A stretch of DNA of 64,000 nucleotides from Clostridium sp. CAG:1000. GTDB taxonomy: Bacteria; Bacillota_I; Bacilli_A; RF39; UBA660. Of this stretch, positions 5,299-51,897 are shown one piece after another. The notes below the pieces were generated by a model. That model made no database searches. It was not told the DNA's origin and worked only from the letters and a program-made list of their open reading frames with translations. The DNA is taken from NCBI GenBank assembly GCA_000436975.1, contig HG000345.1, forward strand, positions 3,518 through 67,517, given 5' to 3'. The stretch's first letter is position 1. Every line of letters starts with the position of its first letter. Both the position numbers and the translations under genes were made by a program.

Positions 5299-5389
5299 CA
5301 TTTTCATCATCCTTTTTAGGTTGATTTTTTGGTTCTTTCTTATCATCCTTTTTAGGTTGATTTTTTATAATTAATCCAACAGTTCTCAT
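5279..5389 (-). CDS. 36-aa repeat-containing small ORF (MRTVGLIIKNQPKKDDKKEPKNQPKKDDENGKVQE)
   Basis: ATG at 5389 is preceded by AGGAGGAAAAA, directly after the capsid stop. It contains the translated 25-nt direct repeat. It is below the ORF-track size cutoff and was read by eye. Confidence 0.3.
5306..5366. repeat. perfect 25-nt direct repeat atcatcctttttaggttgatttttt (5306-5330 and 5342-5366)
   Basis: Read directly from the sequence; the period is 36 nt. Confidence 0.9.
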
Positions 5390-5401
5390 TTTTTCCTCCT
5401 A

Positions 5402-6313
5402 TTATGCAGTTGGTGCTGCTTTATGATGTAAGTAGATTCCTGCTACTTTATTTTCATAAACATCAGCAAGTCCATATTTTCTGTAACCGAACTTCCAAGC
5501 ATCAGCATCTTGGTTTGCTTCTGGTGTTATTACTTTTGGTGCTATATGTTTATTGTATTGCATTACAGCATCCTTTTGAATAATCATGAAATTAATATCA
5601 GCACCGTTTGTATCTCCACTTTCAGAACCTTTAGCATGTCTCTTATATCCACCTTTAGTTTCACCACTAGATTTACCATCTAACATATCTATTGCAGTAT
5701 AGAATCTTGTTTGTGGAACTAAAATAACTTGTTCAAATCTAGATAATACTTCTTTTGATTTAGTAGTATCTAAGTCATCAATAAGTCCTTTTAATGTTGG
5801 AGTAATGAATAAGTATCTTCTTTCGTAAGTTACTTCATCCTCATCCATCTTATTTGTTGCAGTTCTTAAAGCATTAATTACATCAGCACCTGTTGATAGA
5901 GTAGCTGGTGTTGCAACCTTTGAAATACCACTTGTTCCAGCGTATGTAGCGAATCTAAACGCGTCACCTTCTGGAGCAACTTTAGTTCTGATAAATTCAC
6001 TTGCTAATTTACCATAAGCAATTCCAGCTGTTTCTTCATTGTCCATTGCATCAACACTGAACATTCTTCCTCTTTCATAATTGAATTTTACTGTTTCATT
6101 TGTCATAGTTACATCACCATTTGTGTAACCACTACTTCTATCATAATCTCCTAAAGCATCCATATCGATTTTAGGAATTATGATTTCATTTGCATTAGCT
6201 CCTTCTTGTGCTAGTGAAGAGTCACTATCTAATACTGAAGTTAACGCAGCTTGTTTGTACACTTCATCAAGTAAAGGTACATACTTTTTGAATTTTGTAA
6301 TATTATTTGCCAT
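5402..6313 (-). CDS. major capsid protein
   Basis: 303 aa, following the scaffold gene. The size and position are typical for SPP1/A118-like heads. Confidence 0.8.
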   Translation of the reverse strand: MANNITKFKKYVPLLDEVYKQAALTSVLDSDSSLAQEGANANEIIIPKIDMDALGDYDRSSGYTNGDVTMTNETVKFNYERGRMFSVDAMDNEETAGIAYGKLASEFIRTKVAPEGDAFRFATYAGTSGISKVATPATLSTGADVINALRTATNKMDEDEVTYERRYLFITPTLKGLIDDLDTTKSKEVLSRFEQVILVPQTRFYTAIDMLDGKSSGETKGGYKRHAKGSESGDTNGADINFMIIQKDAVMQYNKHIAPKVITPEANQDADAWKFGYRKYGLADVYENKVAGIYLHHKAAPTA

Positions 6314-11073: not shown

Positions 11074-12488
11074 TCTCCAGTGTCTGCATCTTTTATCATT
11101 TGTTTAATCATTTCCCAATTACCTATTAATTTCTTAAATGGTAACCAAGCATATTGACAACCTTGTATATGATGGTCATTTCCATCTTCAAGTTGTCCAT
11201 CTTCTGTGAAACTGTACACATTCGTTTCACCTATATAATCTTTGCATGTTTCAACAATTAAAAAATCCTCGGTATTTAACCAGGACTGTTGTAGTTGAAC
11301 TCTCGTTAAGTTCTTTGTTTTCTTCCATGCACCTTCAAATATGTAAATACATCCAGTTTTTCTTTTGTATTTTTTTGCTTCTGCTATTGTTCCAGCATCA
11401 GCATTATCTATAAAAATGTATCTTGCAAATCCCCATTTGCTTTTACATTTTTCAGCAAAATTAATTAATTTAGGTATAACATCTGATGGAGCAAATGGTA
11501 TTTCTCTATCTTTGTTGTTGTATCCTTCTTCTTCTAGTAAAATACATTTTCTATCTTCCGTTATTCCTACAAATTCAAATGTAAGTTTATCGTGTGATTT
11601 CTTTGAATAAGATGTATCACAACCGATTGCATATCGTACAAACTTTCTTTTCTTTCTAGGATTAGTTTCTTTCCAATCTTCAAACATTGCTTGTTTTTCA
11701 CTTATAATATGTTTTTCAGCAATTATATTGAATACTAATCCTGTTGCTTTTCCTCTCAAACCTTGTATTTTATTTTTATATAATTTAGTTCCAACTGGTA
11801 CAGATTCTATTATTTGCTTCTTTTTCTCATCAGTTAGACTTAAATTATGGTTAAATGTGAAATACCACCAAGTCCAATCAGCAACTCGTTGTTCATTTAA
11901 CATTTTTAATAATTCTATTGGTCCATCATTTTTATATTTATCTATTGGTCTAGATTTATTAACAAATTCTTTATAGCATTCTTTATTTGGATCATCTGGG
12001 TTCATTGTACATAGTCTATAATCAGCCCTCATAAATGCTTCTCGTATAAACTCCATATCAGCAATATTAAATTCATCTATGAATAAGCCATACACTTGGC
12101 CACCTAAAGCTTTCTTCCAACGAGCCTTATTATCATATCCCAATACATAAATTGTCTTGTTCCCATTTTGAGTATGAAAGAGTATGTGTGGAAGACTTAT
12201 TTTGCCTTTACCATTGGGATTGTATTCTACACATCCACCTTCTTTATAATCTCCAAATATTTCAATTAACCCTTTATCAGAGTTAATAATATTTTTTTCA
12301 ATTGTTCCTAAATCAAGTCCTGCTATAATACTAGGTTTTGTTCCTTTATAATCAGCAATTTTAAACATAAATTTAGGAATGCCTACAGTTGTTTTCCCAG
12401 CAAATGTAGTGCCTTCAAGAAATTCCGTACTACAATCATACTTTAAGAAATCAATGTATTTCTCACTTAATGGGAAATCATTATTCAT
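11070..12488 (-). CDS. terL: terminase large subunit (start trimmed to MNNDFPL)
   Basis: Walker A-like segment GTTFAGKTT, a C-terminal nuclease-type region, and overlap with terS and the portal gene. ATG at 12488 follows GGTGG. Confidence 0.85.
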   Translation of the reverse strand: MNNDFPLSEKYIDFLKYDCSTEFLEGTTFAGKTTVGIPKFMFKIADYKGTKPSIIAGLDLGTIEKNIINSDKGLIEIFGDYKEGGCVEYNPNGKGKISLPHILFHTQNGNKTIYVLGYDNKARWKKALGGQVYGLFIDEFNIADMEFIREAFMRADYRLCTMNPDDPNKECYKEFVNKSRPIDKYKNDGPIELLKMLNEQRVADWTWWYFTFNHNLSLTDEKKKQIIESVPVGTKLYKNKIQGLRGKATGLVFNIIAEKHIISEKQAMFEDWKETNPRKKRKFVRYAIGCDTSYSKKSHDKLTFEFVGITEDRKCILLEEEGYNNKDREIPFAPSDVIPKLINFAEKCKSKWGFARYIFIDNADAGTIAEAKKYKRKTGCIYIFEGAWKKTKNLTRVQLQQSWLNTEDFLIVETCKDYIGETNVYSFTEDGQLEDGNDHHIQGCQYAWLPFKKLIGNWEMIKQMIKDADTGE

Positions 12489-12882
12489 TCTTACCACCTA
12501 GTTGTTTTGAAATAGATGATAATATTTTAGTCGCATTAGGGTTTTCAACACTAACTTCATCTTTAGGTTTTTCACCTACTGTATCTCTTAATGAATTAAA
12601 CGCTTGATAATCTCCTTTTAAAGCTCTTTGCCACATAGCAATTATCATAGCCATTTGATTGTCTATATTCTCTTCGTCTATGCCTAATTGTTTAAACGTA
12701 GTTCTAATCTTCTTTCCAGTCTTATCACTAACATCTGGAAATGGTAAAGATAATAACAATGATATCTGGTCTTTCATTAATTTCTTCTTTCTTCTCACTT
12801 CACCAGATTTAATTCCACCATTGCGGCCTTTTCTTTTCGCTTCTTCTGTGCTTTGTATTGGTTTTAAATCACTTGCACTCAT
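12481..12882 (-). CDS. terS: terminase small subunit (start trimmed to MSASDLK)
   Basis: Basic N-terminal segment KRKGRNGGIKSGEVRRKKK. It lies directly upstream of and overlapping terL. AAGGAG sits 9 nt before the ATG at 12882. Confidence 0.75.
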   Translation of the reverse strand: MSASDLKPIQSTEEAKRKGRNGGIKSGEVRRKKKLMKDQISLLLSLPFPDVSDKTGKKIRTTFKQLGIDEENIDNQMAMIIAMWQRALKGDYQAFNSLRDTVGEKPKDEVSVENPNATKILSSISKQLGGKNE

Positions 12883-12920
12883 TGTTATCATCTCCTTCCA
12901 TTATTTTTACAATTAATTTT

Positions 12921-12950
12921 AAAATAAAAAACAACCATTTAAGGTTGTTT
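12921..12950 (-). terminator. intrinsic terminator upstream of terS
   Basis: Stem AAACAACC/GGTTGTTT (12929-12936 / 12943-12950), followed on the minus strand by TTTTTTATTTT. Confidence 0.65.
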
Positions 12951-12954
12951 AATT

Positions 12955-13572
12955 TCAAAATGGCGCCGTGCTATAGGCTAGGTACCCAGTTGGCGGCGCA
13001 GACAAACTCTTTTGGAGCGACCTAATAGTATCTTTAATAGATACTGTCTAATGATATAAAGGTTTATGTTATATGCCTATAACACTTTGTGGTGTCCTCC
13101 AAGAGAATTGTAAGTATAGAAACCACACTACTAACTTACTTTATTACCTTTTGCCCCTAGACTTTTATATATCACTAGACACTACCTACTAGAGATAGTG
13201 CTGCGTGTAGTTGATGGCTACACTTACAAAAAATACAAGAATACACAATCAAATTTGTATTCAAAATTTGAACAGGAGAACTAATTATAACTCCTGTTAG
13301 TGTCTTATAGACACCATATCAAGTAAATATAGAATAGCAATTTACTAAGTGTTTAAACTTTCATAAACTAACATCACTATTCTTCTCGTTAGCAAAGGTA
13401 TATTTACTCAATATGCTACCTATAAAGATAGCATTTCATACTCACTTAAATCTCAACGAAAAAACTTAATATTATTGTATGATTTACACTGCTTTGTTCG
13501 TTGACAGGGTTTTCCAGTAGTTTTCCCTTTGGCTCGCTAGGAGCATTGTTAATGCCTTTTATAAGCACCATA
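12955..13572 (-). ncRNA. candidate large structured phage ncRNA (main body); class unassigned, GOLLD/ROOL-like context
   Basis: No credible ORF on either strand. It contains local GC-rich patches in an otherwise AT-rich phage. Many stems are present: 12963-12968/12994-12999, 13027-13033/13039-13045, 13067-13073/13078-13084, 13205-13210/13218-13223, 13239-13245/13256-13262, 13272-13278/13291-13297, 13300-13305/13309-13314, 13414-13419/13430-13435. A minus-strand promoter and terminators bracket the region. Confidence 0.4.
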
Positions 13573-13670
13573 GGATGAATATAGCAGGGCTCGAACCTAC
13601 AACTCGCGTGTCCTGGTTATTAAGATTTGCGTACGCACCACACTCTACCAATTGAGTTATATATTCACCC
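13573..13670 (-). ncRNA. tRNA-like element (canonical acceptor, D and T arms; non-canonical 40-nt segment in place of anticodon/variable arms)
   Basis: Minus strand reads GGGTGAATATA-TA-ACTC-AATTGGTA-GAGT-G-[40 nt]-GTAGG-TTCGAGC-CCTGC-TATATTCATCC. The T-loop is TTCGAGC and the D-loop AATTGGTA. The acceptor helix is 7 bp, extendable to 11 bp. I could not fold a 5-bp/7-nt anticodon arm by eye. Confidence 0.4.
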
Positions 13671-13673
13671 TAT

Positions 13674-13878
13674 GCTACTCATAAATATGAATAGCACATT
13701 TGAAAGGATGTGTTATTATGAACACAATAGAATAGATATATTATTACAACAACGTTGTCCTATTTACTATAGCATAGGATATATCTACTCTATATTATTC
13801 ATAATTATTCATAAAGGCATTGCTTAACCCTTCCAACTAGCCTATATATGCCTTTCCTAGTTCCCGTTTTATTCTCCC
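13674..13878 (-). ncRNA. 5' hairpin-rich portion of the same candidate transcript
   Basis: A 9-bp stem at 13674-13682/13687-13695 and a 15-bp stem at 13727-13741/13779-13793. Each has one position that is G-U on the minus-strand RNA but A-C on the plus strand. Nested CCTAT/ATAGG and CAACGTTG elements are also present. Confidence 0.35.
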
Positions 13879-13909
13879 ATAAAAAAGAAATCTTTATAAG
13901 AGATTTCTT
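13879..13909 (-). terminator. intrinsic terminator-like hairpin downstream of the late activator gene and ~70 nt downstream of the late promoter
   Basis: Stem AAGAAATCT/AGATTTCTT (13885-13893 / 13901-13909) with loop ttataag. On the minus strand it is followed by a T-run and then ATGGG. Confidence 0.6.
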
Positions 13910-13976
13910 TCAGTTTTGACATAGATCTAAAACTTAAGAATTAATATTACCTCACGTATAATAATTCCATGATACC

Positions 13977-14051
13977 ATTATACCAAAAATTTTGTGACAT
14001 TTCGTGACATCTTTATTTTTTGGTTCATAAAAATGTGACATTTCGTGACAT
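13977..14051 (-). promoter_or_regulatory. activator-type (late) promoter: extended -10 TGGTATAAT plus two 17-nt direct repeats
   Basis: On the minus strand, ATGTCACGAAATGTCAC occurs at 14051-14035 and 14010-13994, four ATGTCAC units in all. TGGTATAAT lies at 13985-13977. There is no good -35 hexamer. Confidence 0.5.
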
Positions 14052-14449
14052 TACAAATCTTTTTCATATAGTCTATGGCATTGTCTAGAACTATAATGAG
14101 TTAATTTTGATATTTCATCCCACTTTTTCTTTTCAACATCTCTATAGTATCTCACTAGTTCACTTCCCCCATACTTAGAAATTCTTTTCATTTCTTTAAT
14201 GATATAGTTTTCATAAGCATTAATACTTTCTTGCAATGAATATATTTCACTGTCAAGCTCTTCATCTTTTATAATATAATGTGCGAATTTATCAAATATT
14301 GCTTTGCCATCATTTTTACCAGTAATAATATCTTTCATAATTGGACTCCCTGGTTGAGATTTTATAAAATTAATTTTCTTTTTTTGCAAATACAATTCTA
14401 ATGTATCTTGCAATTTATCAATTTCATTTTTGGCTTTTAATATATTCAT
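14051..14449 (-). CDS. candidate late-gene transcriptional activator (ArpU/RinA/sigma-region-4-like)
   Basis: 132 aa and the last gene before the packaging region. The C-terminal HTH-like segment is WDEISKLTHYSSRQCHRLYEK. Confidence 0.45.
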   Translation of the reverse strand: MNILKAKNEIDKLQDTLELYLQKKKINFIKSQPGSPIMKDIITGKNDGKAIFDKFAHYIIKDEELDSEIYSLQESINAYENYIIKEMKRISKYGGSELVRYYRDVEKKKWDEISKLTHYSSRQCHRLYEKDL

Positions 14450-15072
14450 TACTCACCTCTATCAAAATGCTCTTCGAGTTTACCATTCTTCATTCTGACA
14501 TATTTTGAAATAATATTCTTATAATTTATTACAAATCCTTCAACATCCCTTTTAACTTTATTAGTGTATTTCTCATAAACACTATCTAAATGTTCTTTTG
14601 TAGGTAGAATATTAAGCACTGTAACTTCTGGAACTATACCTATAAATTTTGGTATTTCTTGATTTAAAAATGGATATTTAAATAGTTCATGATCATAAAT
14701 TAGGTTATATAAGTTATATTCATCATCAATATTTGCTTTTGCGAACATGTACCATCTTTTGTCAAACTCGCTTACATCATACTTTAATTTGCCCATACCA
14801 AGCCATTCTCCACATATTGCTGAATCATTAATTAATTGTTCTTGTAAATAATCTTTATTATCTAACAACCACTGATATAATCCTTTATATAATTTATCTT
14901 TTACTTCTTTTAACTCATTGATATTAATAATTGTTTTTCTTTGAGCAAAATACAACTCATCATTTTTCTTAAAGAATACTAAATTACTTCCATCTAGTTT
15001 TTCAGTTACATATACCTTATCTCCTAAGCAACTAACTCTTTTAGTTTTTGGATATATTTCTTTCTTTATCAT
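14449..15072 (-). CDS. ATP-dependent RNA ligase-like nucleotidyltransferase (minimal, 207 aa)
   Basis: Covalent nucleotidyltransferase motifs appear in order: I TEKLDGSN (Lys25), III CGEWLG, IV EGFVI, V KYVRMK. Confidence 0.65.
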   Translation of the reverse strand: MIKKEIYPKTKRVSCLGDKVYVTEKLDGSNLVFFKKNDELYFAQRKTIININELKEVKDKLYKGLYQWLLDNKDYLQEQLINDSAICGEWLGMGKLKYDVSEFDKRWYMFAKANIDDEYNLYNLIYDHELFKYPFLNQEIPKFIGIVPEVTVLNILPTKEHLDSVYEKYTNKVKRDVEGFVINYKNIISKYVRMKNGKLEEHFDRGE

Positions 15073-34337: not shown

Positions 34338-34545
34338 TAAAAAGAGCAATCCATCCATAAAGGACGAATTGCTCGTGGTACCACCTTTGTTTGTAATAAT
34401 AGTTTATTACCTCTTATTGATAACGGATACTATCCGACTTAAAATCATCATTTGTAATTCATTATTTTAATTTTGTTTGTTTCCACCAACCACAAACTCT
34501 CTATAAATAATAATAAAATAATTACTTCGAATGAATCGCTTTTTA
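34338..34545 (-). promoter_or_regulatory. T-box riboswitch leader, Tyr specifier (UAC)
   Basis: The minus strand shows AGCGATTCATTCGAAGTA (stem I base) and an AGAGAG box. GAATTACAAA holds TAC at 34456-34454. The T-box core is AAAGGTGGTACCACGAGC. The terminator GAGCAATTC...GGATTGCTC is followed by TTTTT. Confidence 0.85.
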
Positions 34546-34558
34546 ATTAACTGCATTG

Positions 34559-51821: not shown

Positions 51822-51897
51822 GCCTGATTAGCTCAGTCGGTAGAGCGCACGGCTGTTAACCGTTAGGTCGCAGGTTCGAGTCCTGCATCAGGCGCCA
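51822..51897 (+). tRNA. tRNA-Asn (anticodon GTT), CCA encoded
   Basis: Cloverleaf read by eye: GCCTGAT-TA-GCTC-AGTCGGTA-GAGC-G-CACGG-CTGTTAA-CCGTT-AGGTC-GCAGG-TTCGAGT-CCTGC-ATCAGGC-G-CCA. Confidence 0.95.

Follow-up and report, generated by a model that had tools for sequence, protein, structure and literature searches.

Helix-closed, exchangeable cassettes in the putative late-operon leader of a Clostridium sp. CAG:1000 prophage

A structured gap between a putative late regulator and terS

The region separating a putative late regulator gene from the probable small terminase gene (terS) in a prophage of Clostridium sp. CAG:1000 is a modular array, in which variable cores are enclosed by long, imperfect and co-varying helices and modules are exchanged among related phages. 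This region, henceforth the gap, covers positions 12892-14050 of the window (the 64,000-nucleotide (nt) stretch of contig HG000345.1 that was analysed), and is bounded by genes encoding proteins of 136 amino acids (aa; 12481-12891) and 132 aa (14051-14449), both on the minus strand. Its structure is specific to that strand, and its position is the one at which related phages carry tRNA genes. With confidence and doubt evenly balanced, we favour a reading of the gap as the leader of the late operon and the polycistronic precursor of several small RNAs, in which the helices would serve as double-strand-specific processing sites.

A sequence-only reading of the window had singled out the gap as a hairpin-dense stretch lacking open reading frames (ORFs), and as a candidate giant phage non-coding RNA (ncRNA). 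The first part of this description holds. The longest stop-to-stop frame in 12850-14100 spans 67 codons (table 11), and frames stay below 100 codons when TGA, TAG or TAA is read as sense; all three stop codons are in use among the phage genes, and no gene hidden by a recoded stop emerged in this interval under any single stop reassignment. The GC-rich patches of the phage also lie where that reading had placed them: the 40-mer with the highest G+C content in the phage part of the window maps to 12962-13001 (0.68), and the second and third (0.55 and 0.53) fall inside the gap as well. A blastn search with the gap region against 50,697 deposited phage genomes returned no match.

The density of inverted repeats is likewise confirmed. 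Under strict criteria (arms of 24 nt with Watson-Crick pairing of 80% or more, 30-160 nt spacer), three inverted-repeat axes were identified in the gap, against none in 40 dinucleotide shuffles and none in six coding controls of equal length, and a fourth pair emerges when G.U is counted. Folding z-scores range from -3 to -5 for several 150-nt segments of the gap. Both stems on which the sequence-only reading had based its proposal of a minus-strand RNA (13727-13741/13779-13793 and 13674-13682/13687-13695) are real and contain one minus-strand G.U apiece, and the strand specificity extends to the remaining structure. Read on the minus strand, the four long helices of the window present 12 G.U versus 2 A.C (composition-expected G.U share 0.56; binomial p = 0.02), and each of the four units is 10-17 kcal/mol more stable when folded as the minus (sense) strand.

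A recurring closing helix around unrelated cores

A 28-nt motif of the gap (UUUAUAGGUAGCAUAUUGAGUAAAUAUA; 13426-13399, minus strand) is followed after 67 nt by its inverted partner, and this motif pair flanks mutually unrelated interiors in dozens of contigs. A survey by inverted-repeat search gathered 98 instances, corresponding to 66 distinct helices that define at least four sequence families (inner strands AUUGAGUAAAUA/UAUUUACUUGAU, AGAGUAGAUAUA/UAUAUCUAUUCU, ACUGAUGAUAUA/UAUAUCAUUAGU and AGGGUGAAUAUA/UAUAUUCAUCCU) with a common geometry. The closing helices are imperfect and extend over 26-34 base pairs (bp), of which 13-20 form the inner and at least 10 the outer part. They contain a G.G mismatch in a GGUAG context, located 13-20 bp from the core, and 53 of the 66 distinct helices present a G.U pair 7 bp inward of this mismatch, a combination for which we know of no described counterpart.

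An alignment of 35 sequences revealed pairing in 95.6% of its cells and changes on both sides in 19 of 26 pairs, a level of pairing and co-variation reached by none of 500 shuffles (slid controls were 30-49% paired), although the pairing percentage is partly built in, because the units were gathered by inverted-repeat search. Two further measures are independent of that selection. Across the distinct helices, sense-strand G.U outnumbers A.C by 239 to 28 (composition expectation 0.56), and 96 of the 98 instances are co-directional with the flanking genes, none of them lying inside a long ORF; many copies share descent, and these counts hence do not represent independent events.

The arms are near-identical across phages whose regulators are only 27-50% identical, which suggests spread by recombination, and in relatives the 5' arm starts 2-3 nt past the CCA of tRNA-Ile. 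A scan of the genome collection with an 18-mer from the arm returned 31 matches, 28 of which are chance occurrences in unrelated taxa; the real ones correspond to the related loci L087, L092 and L094. The helix scaffold was also detected in gut genomes of 'uncultured Bacilli bacterium' (27% G+C). A small ORF starting at a conserved ATGGTG of the 3' arm was considered and discarded, since its frames are not kept among copies.

The interiors enclosed by this helix are diverse. For the commonest arm type, and including one metagenome scan, 65 distinct core sequences of 51-162 nt were obtained, representing at least 26 unrelated classes, one of them tRNA-like; overall, core sizes are 37-109 nt in the cassettes of the gap and 34-158 nt in relatives. 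Stem changes within core classes are compensatory, as in the replacement of GAUAG/CUAUC by GGCAG/CUGCC or of CCUG/CAGG by UCCG/CGGA. The core classes have no match in Rfam, no hammerhead or other small ribozyme was recognized by eye among the scaffold cores, and a search for antisense targets of the cores within the window yielded chance-level matches only.

The resemblance of the arms to terminal inverted repeats around variable interiors raises an explanation at the DNA level, by which they would be miniature transposons, hairpin recombination sites in single-stranded DNA (attC- or IS200/IS605-like) or linkers for shuffling. Recombinational spread, as suggested by arms that remain near-identical next to such divergent regulators, would be natural for elements of this kind, as would the exchange breakpoints at arm boundaries described below, and single-stranded DNA hairpins tolerate G.T wobble. 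We consider this explanation unlikely, given that nearly all copies follow the direction of the surrounding genes, that some cores are tRNA-like and carry T- and D-loop consensus, and that arms directly adjoin genuine tRNA genes at their 3' end. Moreover, no transposase or integron integrase is present among the genes called within 6 kb, the arms contain no attC R-box motif, and the interiors are mutually unrelated, unlike those of miniature inverted-repeat transposable element (MITE) families. A MITE or Correia-like repeat was rejected specifically: inverted arms are present, but they surround 26 unrelated interior classes and are co-directional in 96 of 98 cases.

Modules of the gap and their mosaic distribution in relatives

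Along the minus strand, the order of elements is promoter, hairpin with U run, leader motif, cassettes A and B, module E, cassettes C and D, GC-rich insert, terminator-like hairpin and terS, with cassettes A-D measuring 105-169 nt and module E (110 nt) lying between B and C. The conserved leader motif (GGGAACUAGGAAAG...CUAGUUGGAAGGGUUAAGCA...CUUU; 13865-13813) comprises a co-varying stem and a possible pseudoknot (AACUAG/CUAGUU). Its stem AAAGGCAU/AUGCCUUU is swapped for AAAGAUAC/GUAUCUUU in relatives, with three pairs altered on both sides, and there the motif sits in the slot held by tRNA-Ile in other phages. Module E (GGGAAAACUGCU...CAACGAAC...UUUUUUCGUUGAGAUUUAAG; 13545-13436) is unclamped and, in many relatives, immediately precedes the following cassette; its 10 distinct variants (72-100% identity) show double changes at seven predicted pairs. 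Neither the leader motif nor module E has a match in Rfam.

Cassette A (13812-13708) is formed by arms at 13812-13779 and 13741-13708 around a 37-nt core with two small hairpins, and its minimum free energy is -32.4 for the sense versus -21.6 for the antisense strand. Its inner helix is the one that closes a 124-nt tRNA-like RNA in phages of the L003 type. Cassette B (13697-13548) encompasses a 5' hairpin, a 26-bp closing helix (13685-13660/13583-13558), a tRNA-like core and a 3' hairpin, and cassette C (13437-13296) similarly presents a hairpin on its 5' and on its 3' side, with arms at 13425-13399 and 13331-13305 (helix type S1) around a core of 67 nt; it is these arms that surround the 26 or more unrelated core classes in other loci. 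The arms of cassette D (13197-13029) lie at 13197-13168 and 13058-13029 (helix type S3) and enclose a core of 109 nt. The GC-rich segment that follows (13028-12951) is not a core element but a lineage-specific insertion of 78 nt with a predicted G+C-rich hairpin: it is missing in relatives whose terS is 94-95% identical and was seen in a single viral contig, of the same lineage. Within this insertion, 11 nt (12968-12978) could pair with a complementary stretch in the core of cassette D (13075-13085). A solitary fifth cassette with a 34-nt core (7144-7061, minus strand) lies between genes of the head module, behind two small ORFs; its core sequence GCCGA can pair with a UCGGC that lies, with a U run, just 3' of the unit.

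The tRNA-like element that the sequence-only reading had perceived in the gap is the core of cassette B. It matches the Rfam tRNA model at 13666-13576 (minus strand) with 42.7 bits, against a gathering score of 29, and no other curated family fits the gap. The Rfam alignment identifies a 7-bp acceptor stem, a D arm (ACUC/GAGU with AAUUGGUA) and a T arm (GUAGG-UUCGAGC-CCUGC), together with an anticodon arm of 34 nt versus 15 in the model. The element encodes no CCA, whereas the canonical tRNAs of relatives do. The leader and trailer lengthen its acceptor helix from 7 to at least 12 bp; compared with L003 and L141, the changes in this helix are compensatory. In three scaffold contexts, tRNA-like cores retain the D and T arms intact, along with an acceptor helix that co-varies. 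ARAGORN does not call the element at default settings; with a relaxed threshold and introns allowed it reports a tRNA-Leu(UAA) whose stem has 4 bp and which carries a 12-nt insert at 31/32; the related core of L050 and L035 lacks such a loop. An intron-containing tRNA was set aside, kept at most as part of the tentative proposal of an RNA cassette island below, as the call arises only under relaxed settings, no bulge-helix-bulge was seen and the supposed intron is not present in the L050-type core. A search with the core pattern GTGCGTACGC..GGTTCGA mostly recovered ordinary tRNAs with a G+C-rich D stem, and L141 as the sole new relative. The expanded anticodon region harbours a palindrome (GCGUACGC; 13625-13632, minus strand) that is kept in the otherwise differing L050, L035 and L141 versions, and that could be a site of loop-loop dimerization or protein binding.

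Comparison with related loci outlined a mosaic. The gaps of L001, L002 and L013 are 99.7-100% identical to the window throughout. L008 is identical down to 13399, exactly the end of a cassette C arm, and continues with a different cassette core, an HNH endonuclease gene (NUMOD4/HNH_3; L008 7201-7725, between the RNA array and terS) and a terS of the Terminase_2 type; L012 is identical down to 13028 and there joins the alternative terS that L008 also has. Phages of the common L003 type have only the promoter, a few scattered pieces of 37-110 nt that include arms, and the last 57 nt in common with the window. Exchange breakpoints thus coincide with helix-arm boundaries, and close relatives keep, lack or replace individual units independently, an exchange that one co-folded RNA would not tolerate.

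These observations bear directly on the giant ncRNA of about 1 kb, of the GOLLD or ROOL kind or of a new class, that had been proposed for this locus. The window does share with GOLLD and ROOL a setting in low-GC Gram-positive prophages, nearby tRNA genes and a large non-coding span, and a long structured stretch without ORFs beside tRNA-type sequences is what such an RNA would present in a Bacillota prophage. Arms of different cassettes are also similar enough for cross-pairing, and the 11-bp complementarity between the cassette D core and the GC patch could link distant parts. GOLLD and ROOL are, however, defined by a single conserved multi-domain fold, whereas homologous loci here have in common only scattered and swapped modules, which are deleted, replaced or reordered in close relatives with no compensation elsewhere, and each co-varying long-range pairing stays within a single cassette. 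An Rfam cmscan of 12700-14300 on both strands (E<=10, permissive filters) returned tRNA and chance-level miRNA and snoRNA matches only, and scans of the whole window and 28 related loci at gathering scores detected tRNAs and one T-box, with no GOLLD or ROOL. A single giant RNA is therefore very unlikely.

The mosaic extends into terS, a 136-aa gene (12481-12891, minus strand; phrog_2412, function unknown) directly upstream of terL and the portal gene, a position that favours its assignment as small terminase gene. The location of the gap immediately upstream of terS, its repeated motifs in both orientations, its GC-rich patch and the HNH endonuclease beside terS in L008 could all be features of a cos/pac region recognized by the small terminase, as are the lambda cosB R sites upstream of Nu1. 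Identical arms, however, accompany unrelated terS genes (only 13 of 63 scaffold loci have a homologue of the window's terS; that of L008 and L012 is of the Terminase_2 type), and the GC patch is dispensable, being absent next to terS genes of 94-95% identity; both facts weaken this reading. Furthermore, one unit is located far off in the head module, and tRNA-like content and strand-specific wobble are unexpected in a terminase-binding site. We regard a cos/pac region as the least probable of the explanations considered.

Other relatives carry tRNA or tRNA-like genes in the same place, which identifies the gap as the tRNA and small-RNA region of this phage group. The gaps of L017-L025, with a regulator about 50% identical, contain a canonical tRNA-Ile(UAU) and a 74-nt tRNA(CAG), both with encoded CCA, and a 124-nt tRNA-like element occupies that of L003-type phages. 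The identity of the 'tRNA-Leu(CAG)' called by ARAGORN (L018 5512-5585; L020 4966-5039) is doubtful, since the long variable arm of bacterial leucine tRNAs is missing from its 74 nt and, in L018, A1.A72 is mismatched. L018 also contains a 42-codon ORF for a membrane-peptide-like product between the last cassette and tRNA(CAG) (5383-5510), and the gap is hence not strictly non-coding in every phage of the group.

A putative late-operon leader and small-RNA precursor

The upstream end of the gap presents the minus-strand late promoter of activator type that had been predicted from the sequence. Two 18-nt direct repeats (ATGTCACGAAATGTCACA in minus-strand reading; 14051-14034 and 14010-13993) overlap the -35 position and are putative binding sites for the regulator; they are the sole exact copies in the window, with 0.23 expected at up to three mismatches. 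Just downstream lies an extended -10 element (TGGTATAAT; 13985-13977) that lacks a -35 match, immediately followed on its 3' side by a second -10-like element (TGGTATCAT; 13977-13969). The TGnTATAAT and subsequent GGTATCATGGAAT are kept across relatives, even where the regulator is only 50% identical. The direct repeats at this position, in turn, vary in step with the regulator protein (TGTCGTG..TGTCGTG, TGTCCCA..TGTCCCG or TGTCCGT..TGTCCGG). The tandem pair of extended -10-like elements (13969-13985) persists in distant relatives, and its second member could be a sigma-dependent pause site of the type used by Q antiterminators.

Terminator-like minus-strand hairpins lie at both ends of the gap, as had been reported. 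The leader hairpin (13910-13878) has a 10-bp stem and a 7-nt loop followed by a U run; it was read from the sequence (13910-13884), the scan leaving it unflagged on its G+C criterion, and relatives retain such a hairpin and U run 60-95 nt past the promoter with different stem sequences. The second hairpin (12950-12921; 12950-12929 in the scan) has an 8-bp stem and a U run, is separated from the terS ribosome-binding site by about 30 nt, and is kept upstream of both terS types (88-93% in L008 and L012). No promoter is evident ahead of terS, which this hairpin and U run precede.

The 132-aa protein encoded at the upstream flank (14051-14449, minus strand) is a putative late regulator, either an activator or a Q-like antiterminator. 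It has no match in Pfam or PHROG, none of its 187 homologues is named, an identical entry from Clostridium sp. CAG:1000 is annotated as 'unknown', and it occurs unchanged on hundreds of metagenomic contigs. Its AlphaFold2 (AF2) model is all-helical (pLDDT 81), and a Foldseek search with this model gave a best E-value of 2.3, with non-significant matches enriched in ECF-sigma and sigma region 4. The label of late activator assigned by the sequence-only reading consequently has no support from homology, and derives its support from gene position and from the co-variation of the binding sites. The promoter anatomy is compatible with a RinA/ArpU-like activator or a Q-like antiterminator, and is similar to that of lambda pR'-tR', where a tandem -10-like element and a promoter-proximal terminator are also found.

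Under the favoured reading, the gap would constitute the 5' leader of the phage's single late operon, which spans packaging, head and tail genes. Transcription would initiate at the extended -10 promoter, dependent on or modified by the 132-aa protein, and polymerase would pass the promoter-proximal hairpin and U run to produce a transcript running from the leader motif through cassettes A and B and module E to cassettes C and D, in which every cassette would fold as a variable core closed by the 26-34 bp helix of its conserved flanking arms. A double-strand-specific endoribonuclease of the RNase III type would recognize and cleave these helices, which would also insulate folding, and the cores would be released as small RNAs with a protective terminal stem. 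The same helices would provide entry points for the maturation of ordinary tRNAs in the arrays of related phages. Since the arms are conserved, they would be the sites at which recombination swaps cores between phages.

Several points weigh against this reading, in addition to the selection and shared descent that qualify the helix counts. We infer transcription of the gap, read-through of its hairpins, cleavage of the helices and any role of the cores in trans, and the U-run hairpins at both ends would halt transcription in the absence of an antitermination that is itself supposed. Strand asymmetry alone does not prove RNA, given the wobble tolerated by single-stranded DNA hairpins, and we know of no RNase III-specific determinant that sequence could reveal. 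Co-variation within cores is thin, with one or two double changes per class and almost none in one class, and window cores A, C and D are nearly devoid of variants in the data. Finally, the outer third of the helix can instead form local 5' and 3' hairpins that also co-vary, and the extended helix may therefore be one of two conformers. These local hairpins are absent from some copies that retain the arm sequences, and in units located after tRNA-Ile the GGUAG of the 5' arm can pair with the CUACC at the 3' end of the tRNA; both conformers of the outer helix may exist.

Part of this evidence would agree with a purely cis-acting structured leader, controlling timing, antitermination or the stability of the late mRNA against 5' exonuclease, in which the cores would be decayed tRNA genes or filler. 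A hairpin with a U run at each end and the lack of a promoter before terS imply that read-through must be controlled, the tRNA-like element is deprived of a normal anticodon arm and of the CCA that true tRNAs of relatives encode, core co-variation is sparse, and the solitary unit of the head module is intercistronic, as a processing or stabilizing site would be. One would not, on the other hand, expect filler to survive in the form of discrete, conserved classes; 26 core classes are kept in one conserved helix with their few changes compensatory, and across three scaffold contexts the tRNA-like cores maintain intact D and T arms together with an acceptor helix that co-varies. A leader acting exclusively in cis hence appears rather unlikely to us.

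The processing step of the favoured reading has precedents. RNase III acts on helices in the stalks of 16S and 23S rRNA, the intercistronic R sites of T7, the Bs-RNase III sites of SP82 and transcribed Correia elements of Neisseria. Like these imperfect duplexes of at least 20 bp, which flank stable RNAs or lie between cistrons, the helices described here (26-34 bp) flank tRNA-like and other cores, one of them being intercistronic, and they share a recurring sequence and a fixed internal mismatch. The T7 and SP82 sites are simple hairpins with no cargo, unlike the cassettes, for which cleavage is conjectural.

Small stable RNA genes within a polycistronic phage precursor are also known: the tRNA region of T4 holds the tRNA-like stable RNAs termed species 1 and 2, and Stx phage 933W carries ileZ-argN-argO in its late-operon leader, between Q/pR'/tR' and stx. 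The arrangement in the window, known from its sequence, can be likened to both, and to Stx phages in particular by the location of the array between the promoter-proximal terminator of a late regulator and the first late genes. It differs from these clusters in that most units are not tRNAs, each is closed by a long helix of conserved sequence and the cores are interchangeable, and from Stx phages in a regulator with no detected homology to Q.

The YrlA Y RNAs provide a further parallel, as they combine a terminal helix of the 5' and 3' ends with a variable module able to mimic tRNA, and are often encoded near RtcB operons (PMC4201824). A terminal helix and a variable, tRNA-mimicking module are likewise found in the window. 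The ends of YrlA exit via the anticodon-stem position, with the order T arm, closed acceptor and D arm (PMC4201824), whereas in the window the ends of the tRNA-like unit extend an open acceptor stem and the D arm precedes the T arm. An assignment to bacterial Y RNAs was rejected: the arms contain no GNCGAA(N)G, no TROVE or Rsr protein is encoded among the genes called within 6 kb, and Rfam returned no Y-RNA match. Full-text searches of the literature returned no description of such a cassette arrangement, and a catalogue of candidate viral structured RNAs mentions tRNA-like candidates, not a cassette architecture (PMC10690425).

A role of the cores as tRNA decoys or in anti-defence is possible. 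A broader proposal, which we advance tentatively and think less probable than the precursor itself, is that the gap represents an RNA cassette island of CAG-1000-like gut Bacilli phages, in which dozens of unrelated structured RNAs, tRNA mimics among them, would share one processing helix within a late leader, would be shuffled like anti-defence genes and would act in trans, for instance as decoys or substrates in a contest of tRNA cleavage and repair. The example is drawn from the neighbouring genes: an RNA ligase of the Rnl type (PF09414, 207 aa; 14449-15072, minus strand) is encoded directly upstream of the regulator gene, and in most close relatives RtcB adjoins the ligase (L003 4136-5365). 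The presence of this RNA-repair pair beside an array of tRNA and tRNA-like genes suggests a contest over tRNA cleavage. The phage of the window has no RtcB, and an obligatory link to these genes was discarded, with the ligase in 21 and RtcB in 5 of 63 scaffold loci (counts limited by locus ends) and neither within 4 kb in L018. Protein searches with terS and the RNA ligase matched distant phages only.

Should the cassettes be processed into stable RNAs, this phage group would hold a library of small RNAs; one helix type already accounts for at least 26 core classes, all absent from Rfam. Through the common scaffold, many new phage RNAs could be sought together by a simple sequence search, and the fixed G.G and G.U mark the helix as a candidate motif for recognition by a nuclease or binding protein. 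The cassettes also hint that the hypervariable regions of accessory genes in phages have non-coding counterparts, although, with the hosts uncultured, these findings derive from sequence. More generally, hairpin-dense stretches lacking ORFs beside terS in gut prophages can be arrays of the tRNA type, as opposed to giant RNAs or cos sites. In the host part of the window, a T-box leader (34357-34548, minus strand; 99.3 bits) and a tRNA-Asn(GUU) gene (51822-51897, plus strand) were also identified.

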